Below are positions 2,646 to 15,960 of a stretch of DNA of 19,945 bases, in pieces. Source of the DNA: a virus (lineage: Duplodnaviria > Heunggongvirae > Uroviricota > Caudoviricetes). The stretch is from the IMG/VR virus record IMGVR_UViG_2671180417_000021; one strand, given 5' to 3'. Numbering within the stretch: position 1 is the stretch's first letter; each line of letters opens with the position of its first letter. The notes under the pieces were generated by a model. The model searched no databases. It was given only the letters and a program-made list of their open reading frames with translations, and was not told the DNA's origin. Both the position numbers and the translations under genes were made by a program.

Positions 2646-3695
2646 TCAAACGATTAAATCCTGAACTTCCCTGACTGTCTGCTCAAAACGTCCGGTCTCC
2701 AGCTCAACACCAATCGCACGACGCCCCAGTGCCATCGCCGCTTTTACCGTTGAACCCGACCCCATGAAAAAATCCGCAACCAGATCACTAGGACGACTAC
2801 TTGCGCTGATTATCTGCTGCAGCATTTCTGCCGGTTTTTCGCACGGATGTTTCCCTGGATAGTACTGCACCGGTTTATACGTCCACACATCGGTGTACGG
2901 CACCTGCACCGTCACACCGAAATACCGCCGCAAATTTTTATATTCACTCAGCAGTTCCGTATACTGCCGGTTCAGCTCACTGTATGTGCTGACCAGCTGG
3001 TGGTGTGGCTTTTCCAGTTCACCCCGCTGATGTTTCTCTTCTGCCACCCGGGCAAACAGCGACTGTAATTTCAGATAATCGCTTTCGTTCGGTAGCTGCC
3101 ACTGACTGGCACTGAACCAGTGCGACACCATGTTTTTCTTTCCTGTGGCATCTGCAATCTGTTTTGCCGTTATCCCCAGAGCAGCACGCGCATCACGAAA
3201 GTAAGAAATCAGCGGGGCCATCACATGCTGTTTCAGTGCACTGCCCTTCGCCTCATCGCCATCATCTTTCGGACGATACGGCCCCTGATAATGTTCCGCG
3301 AACAGAATGCGCTCTGTGGCGGGGAAATACGCCCGCAGGCTTTCCTTGTTGCATCCGTTCCAGCGTCCGGACGGCTTCGCCCAGATAATATGGTTCAGCA
3401 CACTGAAGCGTTCACGCATCATGATTTCGATATCAGATGCCAGGCGATGACCACAGAACAGGTAAAGACTTCCGGCAGGTTTCAGCACCCGCCAGAACTG
3501 CGCCAGACACTGGTCCAGCCACTTCAGGTAATCATCGTCGCCCTTCCACTGGTTATCCCAGCCCTCAGGCTTCACTTTAAAGTACGGCGGGTCCGTGACT
3601 ATCAGGTCAACAGAATTTTCGGGTAACGACCGGATAAATTCCAGGCAGTCGGCGTTGATTAACTCACAACTGGATATTTTTACAGTATTAAGCAT
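2646..3695 (-). CDS. DNA methyltransferase, beta-class N6-adenine/N4-cytosine type (DPPY motif near the N-terminus, FxGxG motif near the C-terminus)
   Basis: 349-aa ORF. LIVTDPPYF (motif IV) precedes ADFFMGSGST (motif I). ATG at 3695-3693. Confidence 0.85.
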   Translation of the reverse strand: MLNTVKISSCELINADCLEFIRSLPENSVDLIVTDPPYFKVKPEGWDNQWKGDDDYLKWLDQCLAQFWRVLKPAGSLYLFCGHRLASDIEIMMRERFSVLNHIIWAKPSGRWNGCNKESLRAYFPATERILFAEHYQGPYRPKDDGDEAKGSALKQHVMAPLISYFRDARAALGITAKQIADATGKKNMVSHWFSASQWQLPNESDYLKLQSLFARVAEEKHQRGELEKPHHQLVSTYSELNRQYTELLSEYKNLRRYFGVTVQVPYTDVWTYKPVQYYPGKHPCEKPAEMLQQIISASSRPSDLVADFFMGSGSTVKAAMALGRRAIGVELETGRFEQTVREVQDLIV

Positions 3696-5012: not shown

Positions 5013-5384
5013 CTATATGTAACAATCAATTTCTAAAGATACCCCCAACATTGCCAGACAACCGTCAATAAACCCTTCAGCTTTCTGCAGTCTGATAACA
5101 ACCTGATTAAGTGATATCCCCAGTTTTACCCCCAACACCCGTAATGTAACCCCATACACATAATACATTTCCAGTAATTCGTATTGATACGGTTCCTTTT
5201 TCTTAAGAACTGTCATCGCAGAGCTAATGATCAGGCCATCGTCATCGCTACATTGCGGGCGGGATTTTACTTTCGAAGGAATTAATCCCTTAAAACCTGC
5301 AGCAACAGATGACCATTCCACATCCTCGTGATTATTTGCCACCCATGCCCCCCAACGTTCAAGAACCATTTGAATATCACGCAT
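5013..5384 (-). CDS. Q: Late-gene antiterminator Q (short, ~125-aa QuuD/phage-82-type family)
   Basis: ORF 5013..5399 starts on TTG; preferred start is ATG at 5384 (MRDIQMVLERWGAW...) with GGAG 7 nt upstream. Size and sequence resemble my recollection of E. coli QuuD. Positioned between the nin-like genes and the late-region cargo. Confidence 0.75.
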   Translation of the reverse strand: MRDIQMVLERWGAWVANNHEDVEWSSVAAGFKGLIPSKVKSRPQCSDDDGLIISSAMTVLKKKEPYQYELLEMYYVYGVTLRVLGVKLGISLNQVVIRLQKAEGFIDGCLAMLGVSLEIDCYI

Positions 5385-10131: not shown

Positions 10132-10352
10132 GCCACACCTCCCAGACGCTTAAACATTTTTCCGGAGCAAAAGGCTATAAGCGGCATACTGACGCGGTAA
10201 TTACGGCCCAGCGGTTCACAAACCACCTTCTGACATTCACGGTCAACCAGGCTAACACGTAGAACATGCCCAGCAGGCGTGGTGTACCACTGACCCGGAC
10301 GAGGACAACGGAAAGTATGATTGGTAAACCGTTTGAAAATATTCCGGATCAT
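10128..10352 (-). CDS. Hypothetical protein (74 aa)
   Basis: ATG at 10352 overlaps the Rha stop (ATGA); stop overlaps the next start. No family recognised. Confidence 0.4.
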   Translation of the reverse strand: MIRNIFKRFTNHTFRCPRPGQWYTTPAGHVLRVSLVDRECQKVVCEPLGRNYRVSMPLIAFCSGKMFKRLGGVA

Positions 10353-11317
10353 TTGCGCCCCCTTACCTCTGAAGGGTTCAGCGACAAATTTATGAGACTG
10401 GCCAGCGCCGAAGCATCATTAATATAGTCATATAAGCTAACAGCCAGCGGAGATTCGGCTTTTGCCAACATAGGATAAAGCTGCTGCAGCCAGACCTGAT
10501 GAATTGATGAAATGTAGGAACAGAGAACGCTGGCGTTATGTGCAACGTCGCTCGGTACAGCGGGCTTTGAAAGCTGTTTCTCCATCTGGTTAAAGGCATT
10601 TATGTATGCCTCTTTGAACCGGGCAGCACGTTTACCCGTGAAACCCATAGCAAGAAACGCAAAACCGTCTCGTGTGATTTGATAGCAAGGGAGCTTGCGT
10701 GTACCACCGTTCGGTTGATTTACCGAAATCGATGTCTCCGCAAAATTGCGGGCACAAAACTCTGGGGAACAATCCAGAGTGCGGATCTTTTTCAGCACAT
10801 CGTCGTGACGCTTGGAGAAGAAGTTGGCAACAGCCAAAGAAGTGGTAACGGCCTGGCCGTTGTCAATGGTGATTTCAGGTTGAGTGAGGGCTGGGATCGT
10901 AGCCATGATGGCAGCCTCCGTTGACAGTGAAAAACTTCCACCACCGGAAACGCCAATTTCACTGGTGGTGAACTGGACGGGGTTGGCGTAACCGGCGTCA
11001 ACGGAGACCGGCGCACCTTTCGGTGCCCCCGCCCAGCCCACCATAATCTGGATGTGAGCAAATGCGGACGATAAAAAAGACGCTGGCGCGTCATACATCG
11101 CCGTTGACAATTTCAGGACGCCAATCCCGGCACCCGCTTTATAAGGTGCCTGAGCAGTGTAACGTCCCGGAATTGCAGAATCAATATGCTGGTGGTCCTT
11201 CACACTCAACAAAATCACGCCTGAATTTCCACAAAGGACTAAAGCACTCATGCGGGTAGTCTTTGCGAAGATAGATAACGCGCTGTGTTTCTGGCTCCCA
11301 ACGAATAACATGGACAT
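10349..11317 (-). CDS. rha: Rha-family phage regulatory protein; start uncertain (first ATG 11317, or internal ATG 10906 giving a 185-aa Rha-only product)
   Basis: Rha-type signature in AVTTSLAVANFFSKRHDDVLKKIRTLD...YQITRDGFAFLAMGFTGKRAARFKEAYINAFNQME. Strong GGAGG 8 nt upstream of the internal ATG at 10906. The frame is open a further ~150 codons upstream; the track's start at 11362 is a TTG. Confidence 0.6.
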   Translation of the reverse strand: MSMLFVGSQKHSALSIFAKTTRMSALVLCGNSGVILLSVKDHQHIDSAIPGRYTAQAPYKAGAGIGVLKLSTAMYDAPASFLSSAFAHIQIMVGWAGAPKGAPVSVDAGYANPVQFTTSEIGVSGGGSFSLSTEAAIMATIPALTQPEITIDNGQAVTTSLAVANFFSKRHDDVLKKIRTLDCSPEFCARNFAETSISVNQPNGGTRKLPCYQITRDGFAFLAMGFTGKRAARFKEAYINAFNQMEKQLSKPAVPSDVAHNASVLCSYISSIHQVWLQQLYPMLAKAESPLAVSLYDYINDASALASLINLSLNPSEVRGRK

Positions 11318-11504
11318 AAAGCCCTCTTCCGTCACGAAACCAGCGGTTAAGTTCCTGCACAACTCGCCCCCACAGTCAGGTAAAGTTCTCTGTGGTTACT
11401 TACAGCCAGGTGATTTGGTAATCTGCATTCATGCCGTAACAACAGGTGTTCAGCGACGCTGACCACCAGCTGTTGCGACAAACGGTTATTTGCCGTTAAA
11501 CTAT

Positions 11505-12062
11505 TCATGCGTTAGTTTCTCCACAACCAGAAGCAATCGACGCCACGACGCCCGGAGCTGCACACTCGCGGGCGTTACTATTTTCTGGAGCGCAGAAGAT
11601 TTTGTAGACCAGTGCTGCATGCTCCTGGAGCTTCGAAATTGAAAGATACAGTTCGTCGTTAATTGCTGTCTTCTCATGCGGTTCCACTACACCGTCTTCG
11701 ATTGCTGAACGAATCTGTTTTGAATAACTGCCGATCTGTTCAATGACTTCCAGTAAACGCTGGTTAATATCGGCATTGTCCACATCCTCGACGTCAGGAA
11801 GAGACACAAAGACGCCATTTGCAGACTGCGCCACAGCGTCAGCAATGAAGTGAGTGCCACCAGCACGTTGTAAAATCATTGCCCATCCCAGCGGGAAAAT
11901 CTGATCGCCATCGGCACGAAGGCGGTTAAATAATGCGTTCTCTGTTACATCCAGCCACTCAGCAGCTTCAGCGTAACCCTCCGGCAACGCCGCGATAGTT
12001 TTTCTGACAGCTTTCACGTACCACTCAGGCTGTTTTTCCACTTTCCAGTTATGATTACCCAC
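11505..12062 (-). CDS. cII: CII-type regulatory protein (phage 186 CII / CP76-like)
   Basis: 185 aa, GTG start at 12062 with GGAGG 7 nt upstream, overlapping the cro stop. Sits immediately downstream of cro. AEWLDVTENALFNRLRADGDQIFPLGW resembles my recollection of 186 CII. Tentative. Confidence 0.5.
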   Translation of the reverse strand: MGNHNWKVEKQPEWYVKAVRKTIAALPEGYAEAAEWLDVTENALFNRLRADGDQIFPLGWAMILQRAGGTHFIADAVAQSANGVFVSLPDVEDVDNADINQRLLEVIEQIGSYSKQIRSAIEDGVVEPHEKTAINDELYLSISKLQEHAALVYKIFCAPENSNARECAAPGVVASIASGCGETNA

Positions 12063-12315
12063 GGCTTACCTCCTGTTCCTGTGGTTTAAACCCATTCTGG
12101 TTTTGGCTAGATTGAAAACGTGCCGGATAAAGAATCTGCATTTCGCTGATTTCACCCTTAAAAAAATTGGCCAGACGTTCTGCAAGATCGATAGATGGAA
12201 TTTGTTCCAGTCTTTCAATACGACTCAGCGTCGCTGGATTGACCTGAACGCCAGCAGCAACATGCTGCAAAGCAAATCCGTGCGTCTTACGCACATTCCG
12301 TGATGGTGATTGCAT
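12055..12315 (-). CDS. cro: Cro-like XRE-family HTH repressor
   Basis: ORF 12055..12330 trimmed to ATG at 12315 (GGAGG upstream). HTH segment GVQVNPATLSRIERLEQIPSIDLAERLANFF. Divergent from cI. Confidence 0.7.
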   Translation of the reverse strand: MQSPSRNVRKTHGFALQHVAAGVQVNPATLSRIERLEQIPSIDLAERLANFFKGEISEMQILYPARFQSSQNQNGFKPQEQEVSRG

Positions 12316-12412
12316 ATTACCTCCACACATTGCGTGATGAGCATATTATTTCACGCAAATATTTTGCGCAAGTTGACTTGCTTAACGCGCAATAAAGAAA
12401 TGTAATAAACGC
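12316..12412. promoter_or_regulatory. Divergent cI/cro promoter-operator region (OR-like)
   Basis: Inverted repeat TTGCGTGA-N13-TCACGCAA (12330-12358) and palindrome TTGCGCAA (12364-12371). Candidate PR on the minus strand: -35 TTGCGC, 17-nt spacer, -10 TAATAT. TTGACT at 12373-12378 on the plus strand. Confidence 0.6.
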
Positions 12413-13105
12413 ATGAACATAGGAAACCGAGTCAGACAACTTCGCCAGGCGAAGAACATGAAAATCGCCGATCTCGCTGAAGCAATAGGAGTGGATGCGG
12501 CGAATATCTCACGCCTGGAAACAGGTAAGCAGAAACAATTCACTGAACAAGCCCTGAGTAATATTGCCAGGAGCTTAGGTGTTGATATTGCTGATCTCTT
12601 TACCTCAGACGTCAAAAGTAATACTGTATTTAAAAACAGTATTAGTGAGGATGTTGCGCAGGTGAAGGATGTATTCCGTATTGAAATGCTGGATGTCAGT
12701 GCCAGTGCGGGAAATGGCCTTATCCAGGGCGGTGATGTCATTGATGTGATTCATGCCATTGAATACAGAACTGATAATGCTGTATCGATGTTTGGCGGAC
12801 GGCCAGCCAATCACATTAAAGTTATCAACGTTCGTGGGGACAGTATGTGTTCAACCATTGAGCCAGGAGATCTCATCTTCGTTGATGTCAGTATCAATCA
12901 GTTTGATGGAGATGGTATCTATGTATTTGGTTTTGATGATAAAATTTATGTCAAACGACTGCAAATGATACCTGACAAACTACTGGTGATTTCTGATAAC
13001 CAGATTTACCGTGAATGGGGAATTACCAGCGAAAATGAACACCGGTTTATGGTCTTTGGAAAGGTCTTAATCAGCCAGTCACAAACCCTTAAGCGACACA
13101 ATTAA
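12413..13105 (+). CDS. cI: CI-type prophage repressor (N-terminal HTH plus C-terminal S24 LexA-like autopeptidase domain)
   Basis: 230 aa. N-terminal HTH (VRQLRQAKNMKIADLAEAIGVDAANISRLETG); C-terminal GDSM (catalytic Ser) with downstream KR. Confidence 0.9.
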   Translation: MNIGNRVRQLRQAKNMKIADLAEAIGVDAANISRLETGKQKQFTEQALSNIARSLGVDIADLFTSDVKSNTVFKNSISEDVAQVKDVFRIEMLDVSASAGNGLIQGGDVIDVIHAIEYRTDNAVSMFGGRPANHIKVINVRGDSMCSTIEPGDLIFVDVSINQFDGDGIYVFGFDDKIYVKRLQMIPDKLLVISDNQIYREWGITSENEHRFMVFGKVLISQSQTLKRHN

Positions 13106-13125
13106 CCCTTACCTCCTCATCAATT

Positions 13126-13147
13126 AGCCACCCAAAGGTGGCTTTTC
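13126..13147 (+). terminator. Terminator-like hairpin after cI
   Basis: AGCCACC-CAAA-GGTGGCT followed by TTTC, 20 nt after the cI stop. Confidence 0.45.
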
Positions 13148-13644
13148 ATCACCCTTTAAATTGCATATCTCGCAATAAAAATACTTGCATAATGCACAAC
13201 TTCATTTTATCTTTCTTTCCAGACAAACAAACAAGGTACTAACAAAATTTGGTTGTAACACGGCGTATGGCACATGCGTCGTTAGCGGTCTGGGGACGTT
13301 AAAGGGGACAATCCACTCCTTGCTCGAGCAAACAAACCAGGTAGCCGGAATGTGCAAGTCAATGATGATGCTGATAAGACGCCTAACCAGCGTGGCGGTT
13401 CGGTTTGACACCTGGGAAGAGACCAGGGTGCAACGATGAGGGCATTTATGGAACCGCGACAAAGTGTGGTGCCGTAACTGGCTAAGTGCTCTCAGCGTTG
13501 TGGTGAATGCGCAGGCTGATGCGCGAAAGACATTGCAGCTATTGCGGAAAAGAGCTGTTCGGCGGGGCAATTAAACGCCCGTGAGAGTCTGAAATAACCG
13601 CAAGCCGGAGATCAGCACCGGTCACCACAACAGCCACTGCTTTG

Positions 13645-13690
13645 GCGGTACCAGTTTGTACACTTGCTTCCGGCTGGTACCGCTCTTTTT
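13645..13690 (+). terminator. Rho-independent terminator-like hairpin (10-bp stem) whose U-tract merges into a boxA-like sequence
   Basis: GCGGTACCAG-N19-CTGGTACCGC followed by TCTTTTT. The sequence CGCTCTTTTTACAA at 13681-13694 resembles boxA (GCTCTTTAACAA). Confidence 0.5.
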
Positions 13691-13780
13691 ACAAAACAGA
13701 GAAGAGCATCACCGGACGACGGGCTCATAACCCAATCCACCCGGGCGGCTGCCACCGCAGGTGTTCTTCTCTGTTTTGTG
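13691..13780. other. Long inverted repeat (15-bp arms ACAAAACAGAGAAGA / TCTTCTCTGTTTTGT around a ~60-nt GC-rich spacer), ~35 nt upstream of the rdgC-like start
   Basis: Read directly: arms at 13691-13705 and 13766-13780. Confidence 0.5.
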
Positions 13781-13813
13781 GAGAAACTAATATCTTGTGC
13801 AGAGGAAAATAGA

Positions 13814-14731
13814 ATGAAATTACCAAAATTTCGTAACGCAATTGTGTACCGAGCAACATTACCTAGTATACAGGCTATTGAAGGTCATCTTCTCGAACTC
13901 CCTTATTCTGAAATCGGGGAAACAGAATTTTCACGGTCCTCTTTTGTAGAGAATCCTGTCACTGGTGAACTGGTAACTCCGATATCTGGTGGGTACGCAA
14001 TGGTAATCCGTCATGATCAGAAAATAATTCCCCGACATGTCGTCATGAAAGAAGCTAATTCTCGAATCCAAACAATCGAAAATATGTCCGGGAATAAATT
14101 AAAGCGTGCCGAACGACTGGCCATTATTGATAACGTACGAGTAGATCTATGCAAACAGGCATTTGTTAAGTCTACGCTGATTCTTGCATTGTACAGCACT
14201 GATGAGAAATTATTGGTAATCAACACAACCAATAAAATAATAGCCGGTATGGTATGCGCAATGCTGATTAAGGTTGTCGGTTCAGTGAAAACAGAAACAA
14301 TCAACATCAGTGATATCAAGAATGGACTGACTACACGCCTGAATAACTACATCAATGGTGCAGCCAATGCATTTGAAGGATTCACTGTCGGAAATTATAT
14401 TCAGCTATCACGCTACGCAGATCAAAAGGAAATTATTCGCTACTCAGCTGAGCATGAGTCAATTCAAAGCGAACTGGCCGATAGTCTTAGTAGTAGTTTC
14501 ACTGCTGATAAAATGGAGTTATCCGGTTGCGGTGTGACCTTCATTCTTACCGAAAATTTCCATTTTTCGCGCATCAATACTCAATCTCAGACATTTAATG
14601 ATGAAGATGATAAAGCATTCCAGTGGCGTCATCAGACTGGCGCTGACCTTTTCCAATTCAGCAAGGTAGTTAATTTGATGTGTGACCTTCTTTCTTACAA
14701 AGAAGATAAAAGCCAAAATCCAACAACTTAA
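13814..14731 (+). CDS. rdgC: RdgC-like recombination-associated protein
   Basis: ORF 13664..14731 trimmed to ATG at 13814 (AGAGGA upstream; the upstream part of the ORF overlaps the terminator). N-terminus MKLPKFRNAIVYR parallels RdgC MLWFKNLMVYR, with similar length and later motifs. AT-rich. Confidence 0.55.
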   Translation: MKLPKFRNAIVYRATLPSIQAIEGHLLELPYSEIGETEFSRSSFVENPVTGELVTPISGGYAMVIRHDQKIIPRHVVMKEANSRIQTIENMSGNKLKRAERLAIIDNVRVDLCKQAFVKSTLILALYSTDEKLLVINTTNKIIAGMVCAMLIKVVGSVKTETINISDIKNGLTTRLNNYINGAANAFEGFTVGNYIQLSRYADQKEIIRYSAEHESIQSELADSLSSSFTADKMELSGCGVTFILTENFHFSRINTQSQTFNDEDDKAFQWRHQTGADLFQFSKVVNLMCDLLSYKEDKSQNPTT

Positions 14732-15358: not shown

Positions 15359-15960
15359 ATGTTTTCGAAATGGAAGGGTTTCTTCGCGGGAAATGTGTAC
15401 CACGAGATCTGAAAGTGAATGAAACAAATGCTGAATATCTGGTGCGTAAATTTGCTGAAGCGGAGGCCAAGATTTTGGCTCTGTCCGAAGACCAACAGAA
15501 AGCGATTGAGTCAATTAAGCAGGCTGATGCAGCTGTTAAGTTGGCACACGAGAAGTTTTCGGCGCTGGCGGCGGAGAATGCGGGGCTGAAACACGCAATG
15601 GCCGTAACTCTTGAGCATGTGTCGGTCACGGATGCAGGGCAGGCTGGTGTTGCTGCAATGATTATCAACGATGCCCTACACCACAGCGAAACTCCAGCCA
15701 CCGATGCTTTCCTGGCTGAAATTCGTGCGGAAGCACGCAACGAGGGGATTAACTATACCGCAAGCCGTCTTGCTGCTGCTTTCAATCACGGATTTATCAA
15801 TAAGTCTTTACGTGAAGTTTTCGACGTTACACGCATGATTCTGTCAGCGAAAGAAGAGTTGGCTAATGAACCACACCCGATTGATGGCCTGTCCGGTGAA
15901 TATGCGGAGAAATCCCTAGAAGAATGGGCGGAACAGATTCGCAAAGGAGGCAACCAGTGA
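15349..15960 (+). CDS. Hypothetical phage protein (203 aa, Ala-rich, predicted helical)
   Basis: ATG at 15349 with GGAG 9 nt upstream, overlapping the previous stop. No family recognised. Confidence 0.5.
   Translation: MRMNVFEMEGFLRGKCVPRDLKVNETNAEYLVRKFAEAEAKILALSEDQQKAIESIKQADAAVKLAHEKFSALAAENAGLKHAMAVTLEHVSVTDAGQAGVAAMIINDALHHSETPATDAFLAEIRAEARNEGINYTASRLAAAFNHGFINKSLREVFDVTRMILSAKEELANEPHPIDGLSGEYAEKSLEEWAEQIRKGGNQ

Follow-up and report, generated by a model that had tools for sequence, protein, structure and literature searches.

What stands between the repressor gene cI and the first early-left gene of a lambdoid prophage that has no N gene? The question arises in the window analyzed here, a stretch of 19,945 nucleotides (nt) from the virus record IMGVR_UViG_2671180417_000021, which is a lambdoid prophage. 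The interval concerned, 13106 to 13813, lies directly downstream of the early leftward promoter PL, in the position that nutL and N occupy in lambda. We found that it is noncoding and that it holds a series of modules on the plus strand, A1, A2, B, and C, the last made of an intrinsic terminator and a hairpin module, C2. A2, B, and C2 are under selection for plus-strand RNA secondary structure, and the modules are mosaic units common to many other phages. We propose, with a probability of roughly 55%, that the interval is an untranslated PL-proximal leader of exchangeable structured-RNA modules, which yields a terminated small RNA (sRNA) similar to STnc100 and PasD and, by read-through, a C2 leader.

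A reading made earlier from the sequence alone (the sequence-only reading) had described about 650 base pairs (bp) of G+C-rich DNA between cI and the early-left gene, with no convincing open reading frame (ORF) and no N gene, and these points held. The G+C content is 53% for 13241 to 13790, versus 42% in cI and 40% in rdgC, and no N-like arginine-rich ORF was found among the ORFs of the window. The ORF list does contain frames of 84 and 122 amino acids (aa) in the interval, and depositors annotated hypothetical ORFs in phages mEp460, cdtI, and SfIV. These favor the idea that the interval encodes one or more small proteins, such as the 122-aa minus-strand ORF annotated in mEp460, a frame that is open for 100 to 113 codons in closely related lambdoid copies, or a 25-aa MRRLMRERHCSYCGKELFGGAIKRP peptide starting in hairpin 1 of module B. 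However, none of the four ORFs inside the interval matched a Pfam family, and the place and size of the annotated ORFs change from phage to phage. Among the lambdoid, P1-type, and phiV10-type copies of A1-A2, no frame is open throughout; the accidental open frames differ by lineage. Every clamp element, as we call module B and its relatives, contains AUG CGC AGG CUG AUG CGC, but translation from that AUG ends at random, after 6 to 85 codons. The substitutions in the helices are compensatory. A protein-coding frame conserved in homologous prophages, which the sequence-only reading had named as evidence against its view, was looked for and not found. We therefore consider an encoded small protein extremely unlikely.

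Module B, the clamp (13497 to 13631), has a scaffold that is shared by many phages. The common order is a 7-bp closing stem (UGUGGUG/CACCACA, 13499 to 13505 with 13623 to 13629), an AAU junction (13506 to 13508), hairpin 1 (GCGCA-GGCUGA-UGCGC, 13509 to 13524), a variable insert (13525 to 13603, 79 nt in the window), and hairpin 2 (GCCGG-AGAUCAGCA-CCGGY, 13604 to 13622), which abuts the 3' strand of the closing stem. We located 126 distinct clamp scaffolds by loop and junction anchors only; therefore, stem pairing was no criterion for their selection. Across these scaffolds, 95.5% of the cells were paired, and double-sided changes were found at 14 of the 22 pairs (129 cells). None of 500 shuffles, which like our other shuffle controls take no account of phylogeny, reached any of these measures, and sliding the partner by 1 to 3 columns gave only 26 to 49% pairing. 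The closing stem occurs as UGUGGUG/CACCACA, GUUGGUG/CACCAAC, GAUGGUG/CACCAUC, and UGCGGUG/CACCGCA, and hairpin 1 as GCGCA/UGCGC, GCACA/UGUGC, GCGUA/UACGC, and GCGAA/UUCGC. Because the scans of sequence collections were anchored on exact motifs, the motif positions themselves are conserved by construction, and as the viral-contig scans took in no more than 120 loci each, variant counts from them are to be read as "at least." The two clamp loops are complementary over 5 nt (GCUGA/UCAGC) and invariant across the scaffolds. A cdtI-type cassette has a different complementary loop pair, AUGG/CCAU.

The inserts range from 12 to 370 nt and comprise more than 90 types. One type (loci L112, L115, L087, and L097) contains a 40-nt stretch that is 85% identical, in the sense orientation, to E. 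coli 16S rRNA at about positions 243 to 282, the helix 11 region. Another locus (L078, 3978 to 4026) carries a D-arm and a T-arm inside the clamp, a partial tRNA that scored 34 bits with the tRNA model. The idea that the inserts are in general rRNA or tRNA fragments was rejected, given that one type matches 16S rRNA, one is a partial tRNA, and most are neither. Rfam 15 has no family for the clamp, including a minimal clamp with a 12-nt insert and 12 related loci. A search of the interval against Rfam, at the gathering score and at E values up to 10, returned nothing but a chance partial match of rydB to hairpin 2; kinship with rydB was rejected, as the K-12 rydB itself has no clamp. The exact 23-nt 5' clamp motif is present in representative genomes of 104 species. 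These belong to the Enterobacterales, many Burkholderiales, Pseudomonas, Oceanospirillales, relatives of the Xanthomonadales, a few Alphaproteobacteria, and assorted metagenome bins, so that the hosts are mainly Gamma- and Betaproteobacteria. Of 117 clamps, 36 have a terminator-like site in the 130 nt that follow, versus 18 of 756 random places (2.4%).

What B has in common with a tRNA, although it is not one, is the shape and the genomic slot. The clamp has the proportions of a tRNA top half, namely, a 7-bp acceptor-like stem stacked on a 5-bp arm (hairpin 2), with no base between them and both covarying, a second arm past a short junction, and complementary loops. The hypervariable insert occupies the anticodon-arm position of this layout, and the clamp is in that respect a natural counterpart of the engineered tRNA scaffold, in which a cargo RNA is placed at the same position. 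Unlike in a tRNA, the clamp junction has 3 nt instead of 2, and the loops, of 6 and 9 nt, would form five Watson-Crick pairs instead of a T-loop/D-loop elbow. The clamp also has neither a UUCRA T-loop nor a regular CCA and is missed by tRNA finders. Two generalizations were rejected: clamps do not as a rule end in CCA, which is enriched yet found in a minority, and they are not usually located beside tRNAs, an association that is strong only for A1-A2.

The slot itself is occupied in several ways. In phiV10-like phages, a real tRNA-Arg(UCU), which starts with the same GUGG, stands at the clamp position behind the same leader, CUAAGUGCUCUCAGCGUU. In two loci (L295 and L274), the slot upstream of C2 holds an RNA that resembles a tRNA: its D and T arms are canonical, about 70 nt are inserted in its center, it has a UUCAUAA loop, and ARAGORN does not call it. 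Other clamp types fill the slot in further phages. In many leaders (for example, L358, L201, and L130), additional pieces that look like parts of a tRNA stand before the slot, one being GGTCCGTTCGATTCGGACACCGGCA, a T-arm-like hairpin with a 3' strand; thus, the array often exceeds that of the window in length. Directly before the clamp is a conserved slot leader, AGUGCUCUCAGC (13485 to 13496), with a boxA-like UGCUCU at 13487 to 13492. Of 213 distinct clamps, 61 have TGCTCT or TGTTCT in the 22 nt before them, versus 29 of 2,390 random 22-mers (1.2%), an enrichment of about 24-fold. The window's leader reads UGCUCUCAG and leaves the boxA sequence GCUCUUUA after six bases. We consider this partial boxA a candidate Nus signal, and a better one than the motif pointed out by the sequence-only reading.

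That motif, CGCTCTTTTTACAA, had been placed at the 3' side of a terminator. The terminator itself (13645 to 13690) proved to be a strong intrinsic, that is, Rho-independent, one, with a G+C-rich hairpin directly before a U-run on the transcribed strand. Its 10-bp stem, GCGGTACCAG/CTGGTACCGC (13645 to 13654 with 13674 to 13683), encloses a 19-nt loop and is followed by TCTTTTT, UCUUUUU in the RNA, up to 13690. Homologues retain a hairpin and a T-run at this position with unrelated stem sequences. The boxA-like motif did not survive the comparison. The window contains 7 one-mismatch boxA matches versus 8.4 expected, and the CGCTC part is lost in homologues, which read GTCC-, GACC-, GCCC-, or GCACC-TTTTT; only the T-tract and the following ACAMAAC are conserved at the border between the terminator and C2. 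Therefore, of the conservation that had been expected for the hairpins and the boxA-like motif together, the hairpins are kept across homologues and the CGCTC is not. Nor does the interval contain a lambda-type nut signal, that is, a boxA (YGCUCUUUA) with a boxB hairpin and a downstream N. The perfect 15-bp inverted repeat reported next to the terminator is real and extends to an RNA helix of 25 pairs, but its arms lie at 13691 to 13705 and 13765 to 13779, one position from where the second arm had been put (13766 to 13780). The fold of the terminator plus this hairpin was matched by 0 of 200 shuffles (z = -7.2).

This helix is the long lower stem of module C2 (13691 to 13790), in which 13691 to 13715 pair with 13755 to 13779 below a three-way junction and a 3' tail, GGAGAAAC, follows. 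More than 80 distinct versions in viral contigs share the long lower stem, the three-way junction, a conserved apex, and the tail. The tail reads GUGGAGAAAC or GUAUGGAGAA and could pair with the U-run of the terminator. With 24 variants, RNAalifold found compensatory changes at 8 of 36 pairs, for instance, from G-C to C-G in 8 sequences and from A-U to G-C in 8; the inner stem covaries as CCGG/CCGG, CCAGG/CCUGG, and CAUG/CAUG. Several G-U pairs would be A-C mismatches on the opposite strand, and therefore selection acts on the plus-strand RNA. The apex, CGACGGGCUCAUAACCC (13717 to 13733), matches the anticodon arm of initiator tRNA-fMet. It is identical to positions 26 to 42 of E. coli metZ at 16 of 17 nt, an alignment score reached by 0 of 2,000 shuffles, and 13721 to 13733 read GGG-CUCAUAA-CCC, the three G-C pairs of the initiator type closing a CUCAUAA loop. 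Among 100 distinct versions that were anchored on the 3' stem only, the apex is exact in 80, and most of the others are one base off; in a few C2 variants, the loop is a different one, CCCACCA or CCCUAAC. No C2 has a tRNA gene less than 1 kb away, and C2 homology stops at 13790 whichever gene follows. The mimicry suggests contact with a factor that reads this arm, which may be the 30S subunit with initiation factor 3 (IF3), methionyl-tRNA synthetase (MetRS), or an anticodon nuclease. As far as our searches show, no phage mRNA leader has been described with a mimic of the initiator-tRNA anticodon arm; neither Rfam, nor RefSeq annotation, nor the searchable literature, a body that most subscription journals lie outside, describes the clamp, C2, or A1-A2.

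The two upstream modules differ in what can be said of their structure. A1 (13247 to 13342) is a highly conserved noncoding sequence; copies that are 78 to 88% identical immediately follow tRNA-Ile in P1 and in the plasmid pCUVET20-PYO4.3 and precede tRNA-Arg in phiV10-like phages. Seven variants of A1 show no compensatory changes, being too similar to one another for covariation. A2 (13343 to 13484) is a structured RNA with compensatory changes at 7 of 21 pairs (RNAalifold, 9 variants). GCCGGA/UUCGGU closes its 5' domain, in which there are variable hairpins and one hairpin with a conserved GGAAGAG loop; the stem of the latter occurs as CCUGG/CCAGG, CCUCG/CGAGG, and CCGG/CCGG. Of 126 loci, 55 have a tRNA on the same strand no more than 300 nt from the A1-A2 junction.

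The sequence-only reading had treated the region as a single element, perhaps one that encodes a small RNA. The second thought stood in the sense of conserved structured RNA; the covariance-model search that it proposed matched no family, and the compensatory base changes that it asked for were found across related loci for B, C2, and A2. The first did not, as the modules of the array are mosaic and independent of one another and turn up in lytic phages, in P1, and on plasmids as well, sometimes beside tRNA genes. Block 13241 to 13790 is 97% identical in mEp460 and 87% identical overall in phage cdtI and Stx2c phages, and at least part of the module is present in 2,690 of 5,426 complete E. coli genomes. 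Homology ends sharply at 13790, and other phages carry different first early-left genes. Compared with cdtI, the flanks are about 99% identical and 13506 to 13622 are swapped for an unrelated cassette. A1-A2 directly precedes tRNA-Arg in phiV10-like phages, T1-like phages and Ackermannviridae also have B, and C (terminator and hairpin) stands alone in phages of the Shigella SfII/SfIV type. On plasmid pCUVET20-PYO4.3 (89 kb, with a phage-type pacase subunit gene; locus L003, 355 to 2319), a clamp 97% identical to that of the window is followed 5 nt later by tRNA-Ser, and A1 stands after tRNA-Ile, with the Thoeris anti-defense gene Tad2 about 350 nt further. In phage P1 (locus L005, 796 to 835 and 2001 to 2185), a clamp lies opposite the annotated plp lipoprotein ORF, which is therefore doubtful, and an A1-A2 homologue fills the trnI-ban leader.

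The transcription context was read from operators and from a relative. Two operator-like 15-mers of the form TTGC-N7-GCAA (13161 to 13175 and 13185 to 13199, strand unassigned) mark the OL/PL region and share the form of TTGCTTAACGCGCAA at 12378 to 12392, between cro and cI. Homology to phages of other immunity types begins only at 13241, just past these immunity-specific operators. No convincing sigma-70 hexamers for PL were found in the window, and the placement and direction of PL follow from the operators and from a phage locus of another immunity type (L170, about 5130 to 5330 as oriented). There, cI and a terminator are followed by a promoter, TTGACA and TACATT with an 18-nt spacer, and the operators that overlap it are the same as those between cI and cro of this phage. 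This promoter lies 11 nt before a clamp identical to that of the window, with no A1-A2 between them; therefore, the clamp is what PL transcribes first in that phage. The window has A1-A2 between the PL region and the clamp.

We suggest that PL would transcribe A1-A2-B once cI repression is lifted and that most polymerases would stop at 13690, leaving a stable RNA of about 190 nt that consists of the clamp, the terminator hairpin, and a U-tail. In this scenario, the clamp would be a nuclease-resistant tRNA-like scaffold, and possibly a processing signal, and the variable insert would carry specificity, by analogy with STnc100 and PasD. Polymerases that read through would transcribe C2, which would stay at the 5' end of the early-left mRNA and, irrespective of the gene behind it, may influence in cis the processing or stability of the RNA or the read-through farther downstream. 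The 25-bp stem of C2 would be a plausible RNase III site, by analogy with the lambda N leader.

A 2026 preprint (bioRxiv 10.64898/2026.05.13.724894) describes STnc100 (RF02076) and PasD, the latter Hfq associated, as prophage base-pairing sRNAs and groups the two together. Like the clamp, they are prophage borne and have an outer stem, ending in UGGUGAAU on the 5' side and starting with CACCA on the 3' side, around a first hairpin, variable hairpins, and a last hairpin that abuts the stem. Next come a short spacer and an intrinsic terminator, as they do after B. The window has its own full STnc100 copy at 949 to 1139 on the minus strand (139 bits), adjoining a tRNA-Arg/Arg/Met cluster; in the Rfam alignment this copy runs GCAUGGUGAAU, hairpin, further sequence, hairpin, CACCAUGC, spacer, and terminator. 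Unlike STnc100, which lies in the late region and has different hairpin sequences and loops, B is in the PL leader, and its scaffold occurs far beyond the Enterobacterales. Of the features of Hfq-binding sRNAs, only the module of terminator and U-tail is present in the interval.

Several observations weigh against our proposal. The STnc100 model (gathering score, 47 bits) has no match in 13000 to 13900, even at E values up to 10. The clamp model scored 6.7 bits (E = 3.7) at the STnc100 locus; this covariance model of the scaffold fails to bridge the 79-nt insert, gives two half matches, and is uninformative on STnc100. Since neither model recognizes the other's locus, the relation to STnc100 is one of architecture only, not of membership. 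On the tRNA side, neither the tRNA covariance model nor ARAGORN makes a call in 13000 to 13900, and the lack of the canonical T-loop consensus counts here as well. NCCA follows the closing stem in 21 of 228 distinct variants, above chance yet in a minority, and the window copy reads ACAG. A tRNA stands no more than 300 nt away, and always on the same strand, for only 17 of 162 clamps (10%), versus 4.4% of random positions. The clamp loops never vary, so complementarity is the sole support for the predicted loop-loop helix. Finally, a terminator before the whole early-left operon requires a read-through mechanism, and none was identified.

The last point leads to a different explanation, in which an RNA just past PL, either the UGCUCU leader with the clamp or C2, would act in cis as a put-like or rrn-like antiterminator. 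By modifying polymerase, with or without Nus factors, it would let the enzyme ignore 13690 and later terminators and would replace the missing N protein. The position directly downstream of PL in a phage with no N-like gene fits this idea, as does the enrichment of the conserved UGCUCU leader before clamp slots, and the sequences of the clamp junction and loops are kept so strongly throughout the Proteobacteria that a host partner which is itself conserved is suggested. The phages of the mEp collection are reported to be Nus dependent (PMC11893012), and mEp460, with its 97% identical leader, is placed among them by name only. HK022 is the nearest precedent, as its putL and putR are structured RNAs just downstream of PL in a lambdoid phage without N. 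However, the put-like relation that the sequence-only reading had raised finds no sequence counterpart, as a blastn-short comparison of 13200 to 13830 with the HK022 immunity region gave chance 10- to 15-mers only, and here a terminator stands between the clamp and C2. The put RNAs, of about 70 nt, consist of two neighboring stem-loops and lack a variable insert, and a hypervariable insert of 12 to 370 nt is unexpected in a polymerase-binding RNA. Moreover, clamps also occur outside the PL context, in lytic phages, in P1, and beside tRNAs; C2 is made only once the first terminator has been passed; and the window leader departs from boxA, with boxA-like matches in the window at the chance level. 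We consider antitermination unlikely.

The tRNA resemblance allows two further explanations. The modules might be tRNA-mimic decoys or sponges, the clamp imitating the elbow and acceptor and C2 the initiator anticodon arm, that titrate or misdirect host factors acting on tRNAs, such as tRNA-processing or initiation factors or the anticodon nucleases of defense or toxin-antitoxin systems, for example, VapC-type enzymes cutting tRNA-fMet. An enteric VapC reportedly cleaves initiator tRNA in the anticodon arm, a finding of Winther and Gerdes from 2011. The tRNA-like proportions of the clamp, the real tRNAs in the same slot, and the 16-of-17 match of the C2 apex, which is kept in at least 80% of independently anchored variants, agree with such a role. 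So do the inserts that are fragments of cellular RNAs (16S rRNA, 85% over 40 nt, and the 34-bit partial tRNA) and the Tad2 gene near the plasmid copy. In contrast, only one insert type matched rRNA, in a survey that included no systematic comparison with tRNAs, a single copy in an mRNA leader means low stoichiometry, and the few C2 variants with CCCACCA or CCCUAAC loops do not fit. Decoys are thus improbable in our view. We are equally doubtful of a bolder version, in which an undescribed proteobacterial-phage family of tRNA-top-half clamps would display hypervariable cargos, some copied from rRNA or tRNA, and one lambdoid lineage would have added an initiator-mimic hairpin, the whole serving, where the early-left transcript begins, to decoy or reprogram host tRNA- and ribosome-directed enzymes (defense nucleases or initiation factors). 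Alternatively, the array could be the decaying remnant of a phage tRNA-gene array, flanks and pseudo-tRNAs with no present function, as homologues of A1, A2, and B flank real tRNA genes in P1, phiV10-like phages, and the plasmid, and some slots still hold tRNAs or tRNA fragments. Yet compensatory changes maintain the helices of B, C2, and A2, the 23-nt clamp motif is exact in prophages of 104 species from several proteobacterial orders, and about half of the complete E. coli genomes contain at least part of the module. Decay is therefore very unlikely.

The proposal of a terminated sRNA with a C2 leader can also be set beside other known systems. In lambda, nutL and the RNase III hairpin of the N leader hold the same position, with a boxA-like UGCUCU and then a stem, and a long near-perfect hairpin, here C2, precedes the first early-left gene. 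Such a hairpin before an early-left gene makes RNase III processing of C2 plausible. Unlike lambda, the window has no N gene and no boxB, and the boxA first suggested is unconserved. Operators that mimic an anticodon arm, such as that of E. coli thrS, likewise show a near-exact tRNA anticodon stem-loop in an mRNA leader. However, C2 mimics the initiator tRNA, and the downstream gene varies between phages; thus, C2 is not an autoregulatory operator for a synthetase gene. ROOL and GOLLD resemble the array in being noncoding, phage or prophage borne, and sometimes beside tRNA genes. Unlike them, the window's units have no Rfam match and are separate modules of about 100 to 190 nt that recombine independently, not one large RNA.

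The genes around the interval are those of a lambdoid immunity region. The CII-family gene (11505 to 12062) overlaps cro (12055 to 12330, minus strand), as had been stated before, and the ORF coordinates and the CII-like product bear this out. The plus-strand cI (12413 to 13105) encodes a helix-turn-helix domain and an S24 peptidase and is followed by a terminator-like hairpin with a T-run, AGCCACC-CAAA-GGTGGCT-TTTT (13126 to 13146), read from the sequence and overlapped by a site in a terminator scan. On the other side, outside the RNA array, the first early-left gene (13814 to 14731, plus strand) belongs to the RdgC family (PF04381, E = 5e-31), and its start is 13814 rather than 13815. Within an early-left ORF, at 15519 to 15530, the hairpin-1 core, GCAGGCTGATGC, recurs exactly, probably by chance (11 bits, E = 0.17). 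At 10961 to 11149 on the minus strand, a C4 antisense RNA (81 bits) is adjacent to an isrK RNA (62 bits), a pair also present in cdtI. They fall within the 5' part of the listed Rha/Ash antirepressor ORF (10349 to 11362), whose true start is probably downstream of both RNAs. The pair is a predicted P1/Gifsy-type RNA control of the antirepressor in the early-right operon. In the late region, tRNA genes lie at 1216 to 1467 and 2435 to 2596, both on the minus strand. Part of the tRNA cluster recurs about 1.13 kb away and ORFs show the same offset (for example, 1718 to 1939 and 2847 to 3068), which points to a duplicated segment of about 1.1 kb.

Some or all of this leader is carried by about half of the complete E. 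coli genomes, where it is annotated as nothing or as spurious hypothetical proteins. It holds the nutL/N position in a large lambdoid group without N, comprising Stx2-, Stx2c-, and Cdt-converting phages and Shigella serotype-converting phages, and this position makes early-left expression in the group a testable question. The clamp combines strong covariation and a very wide host range with the lack of an Rfam family, and its variable insert suggests a cassette system for RNA functions.

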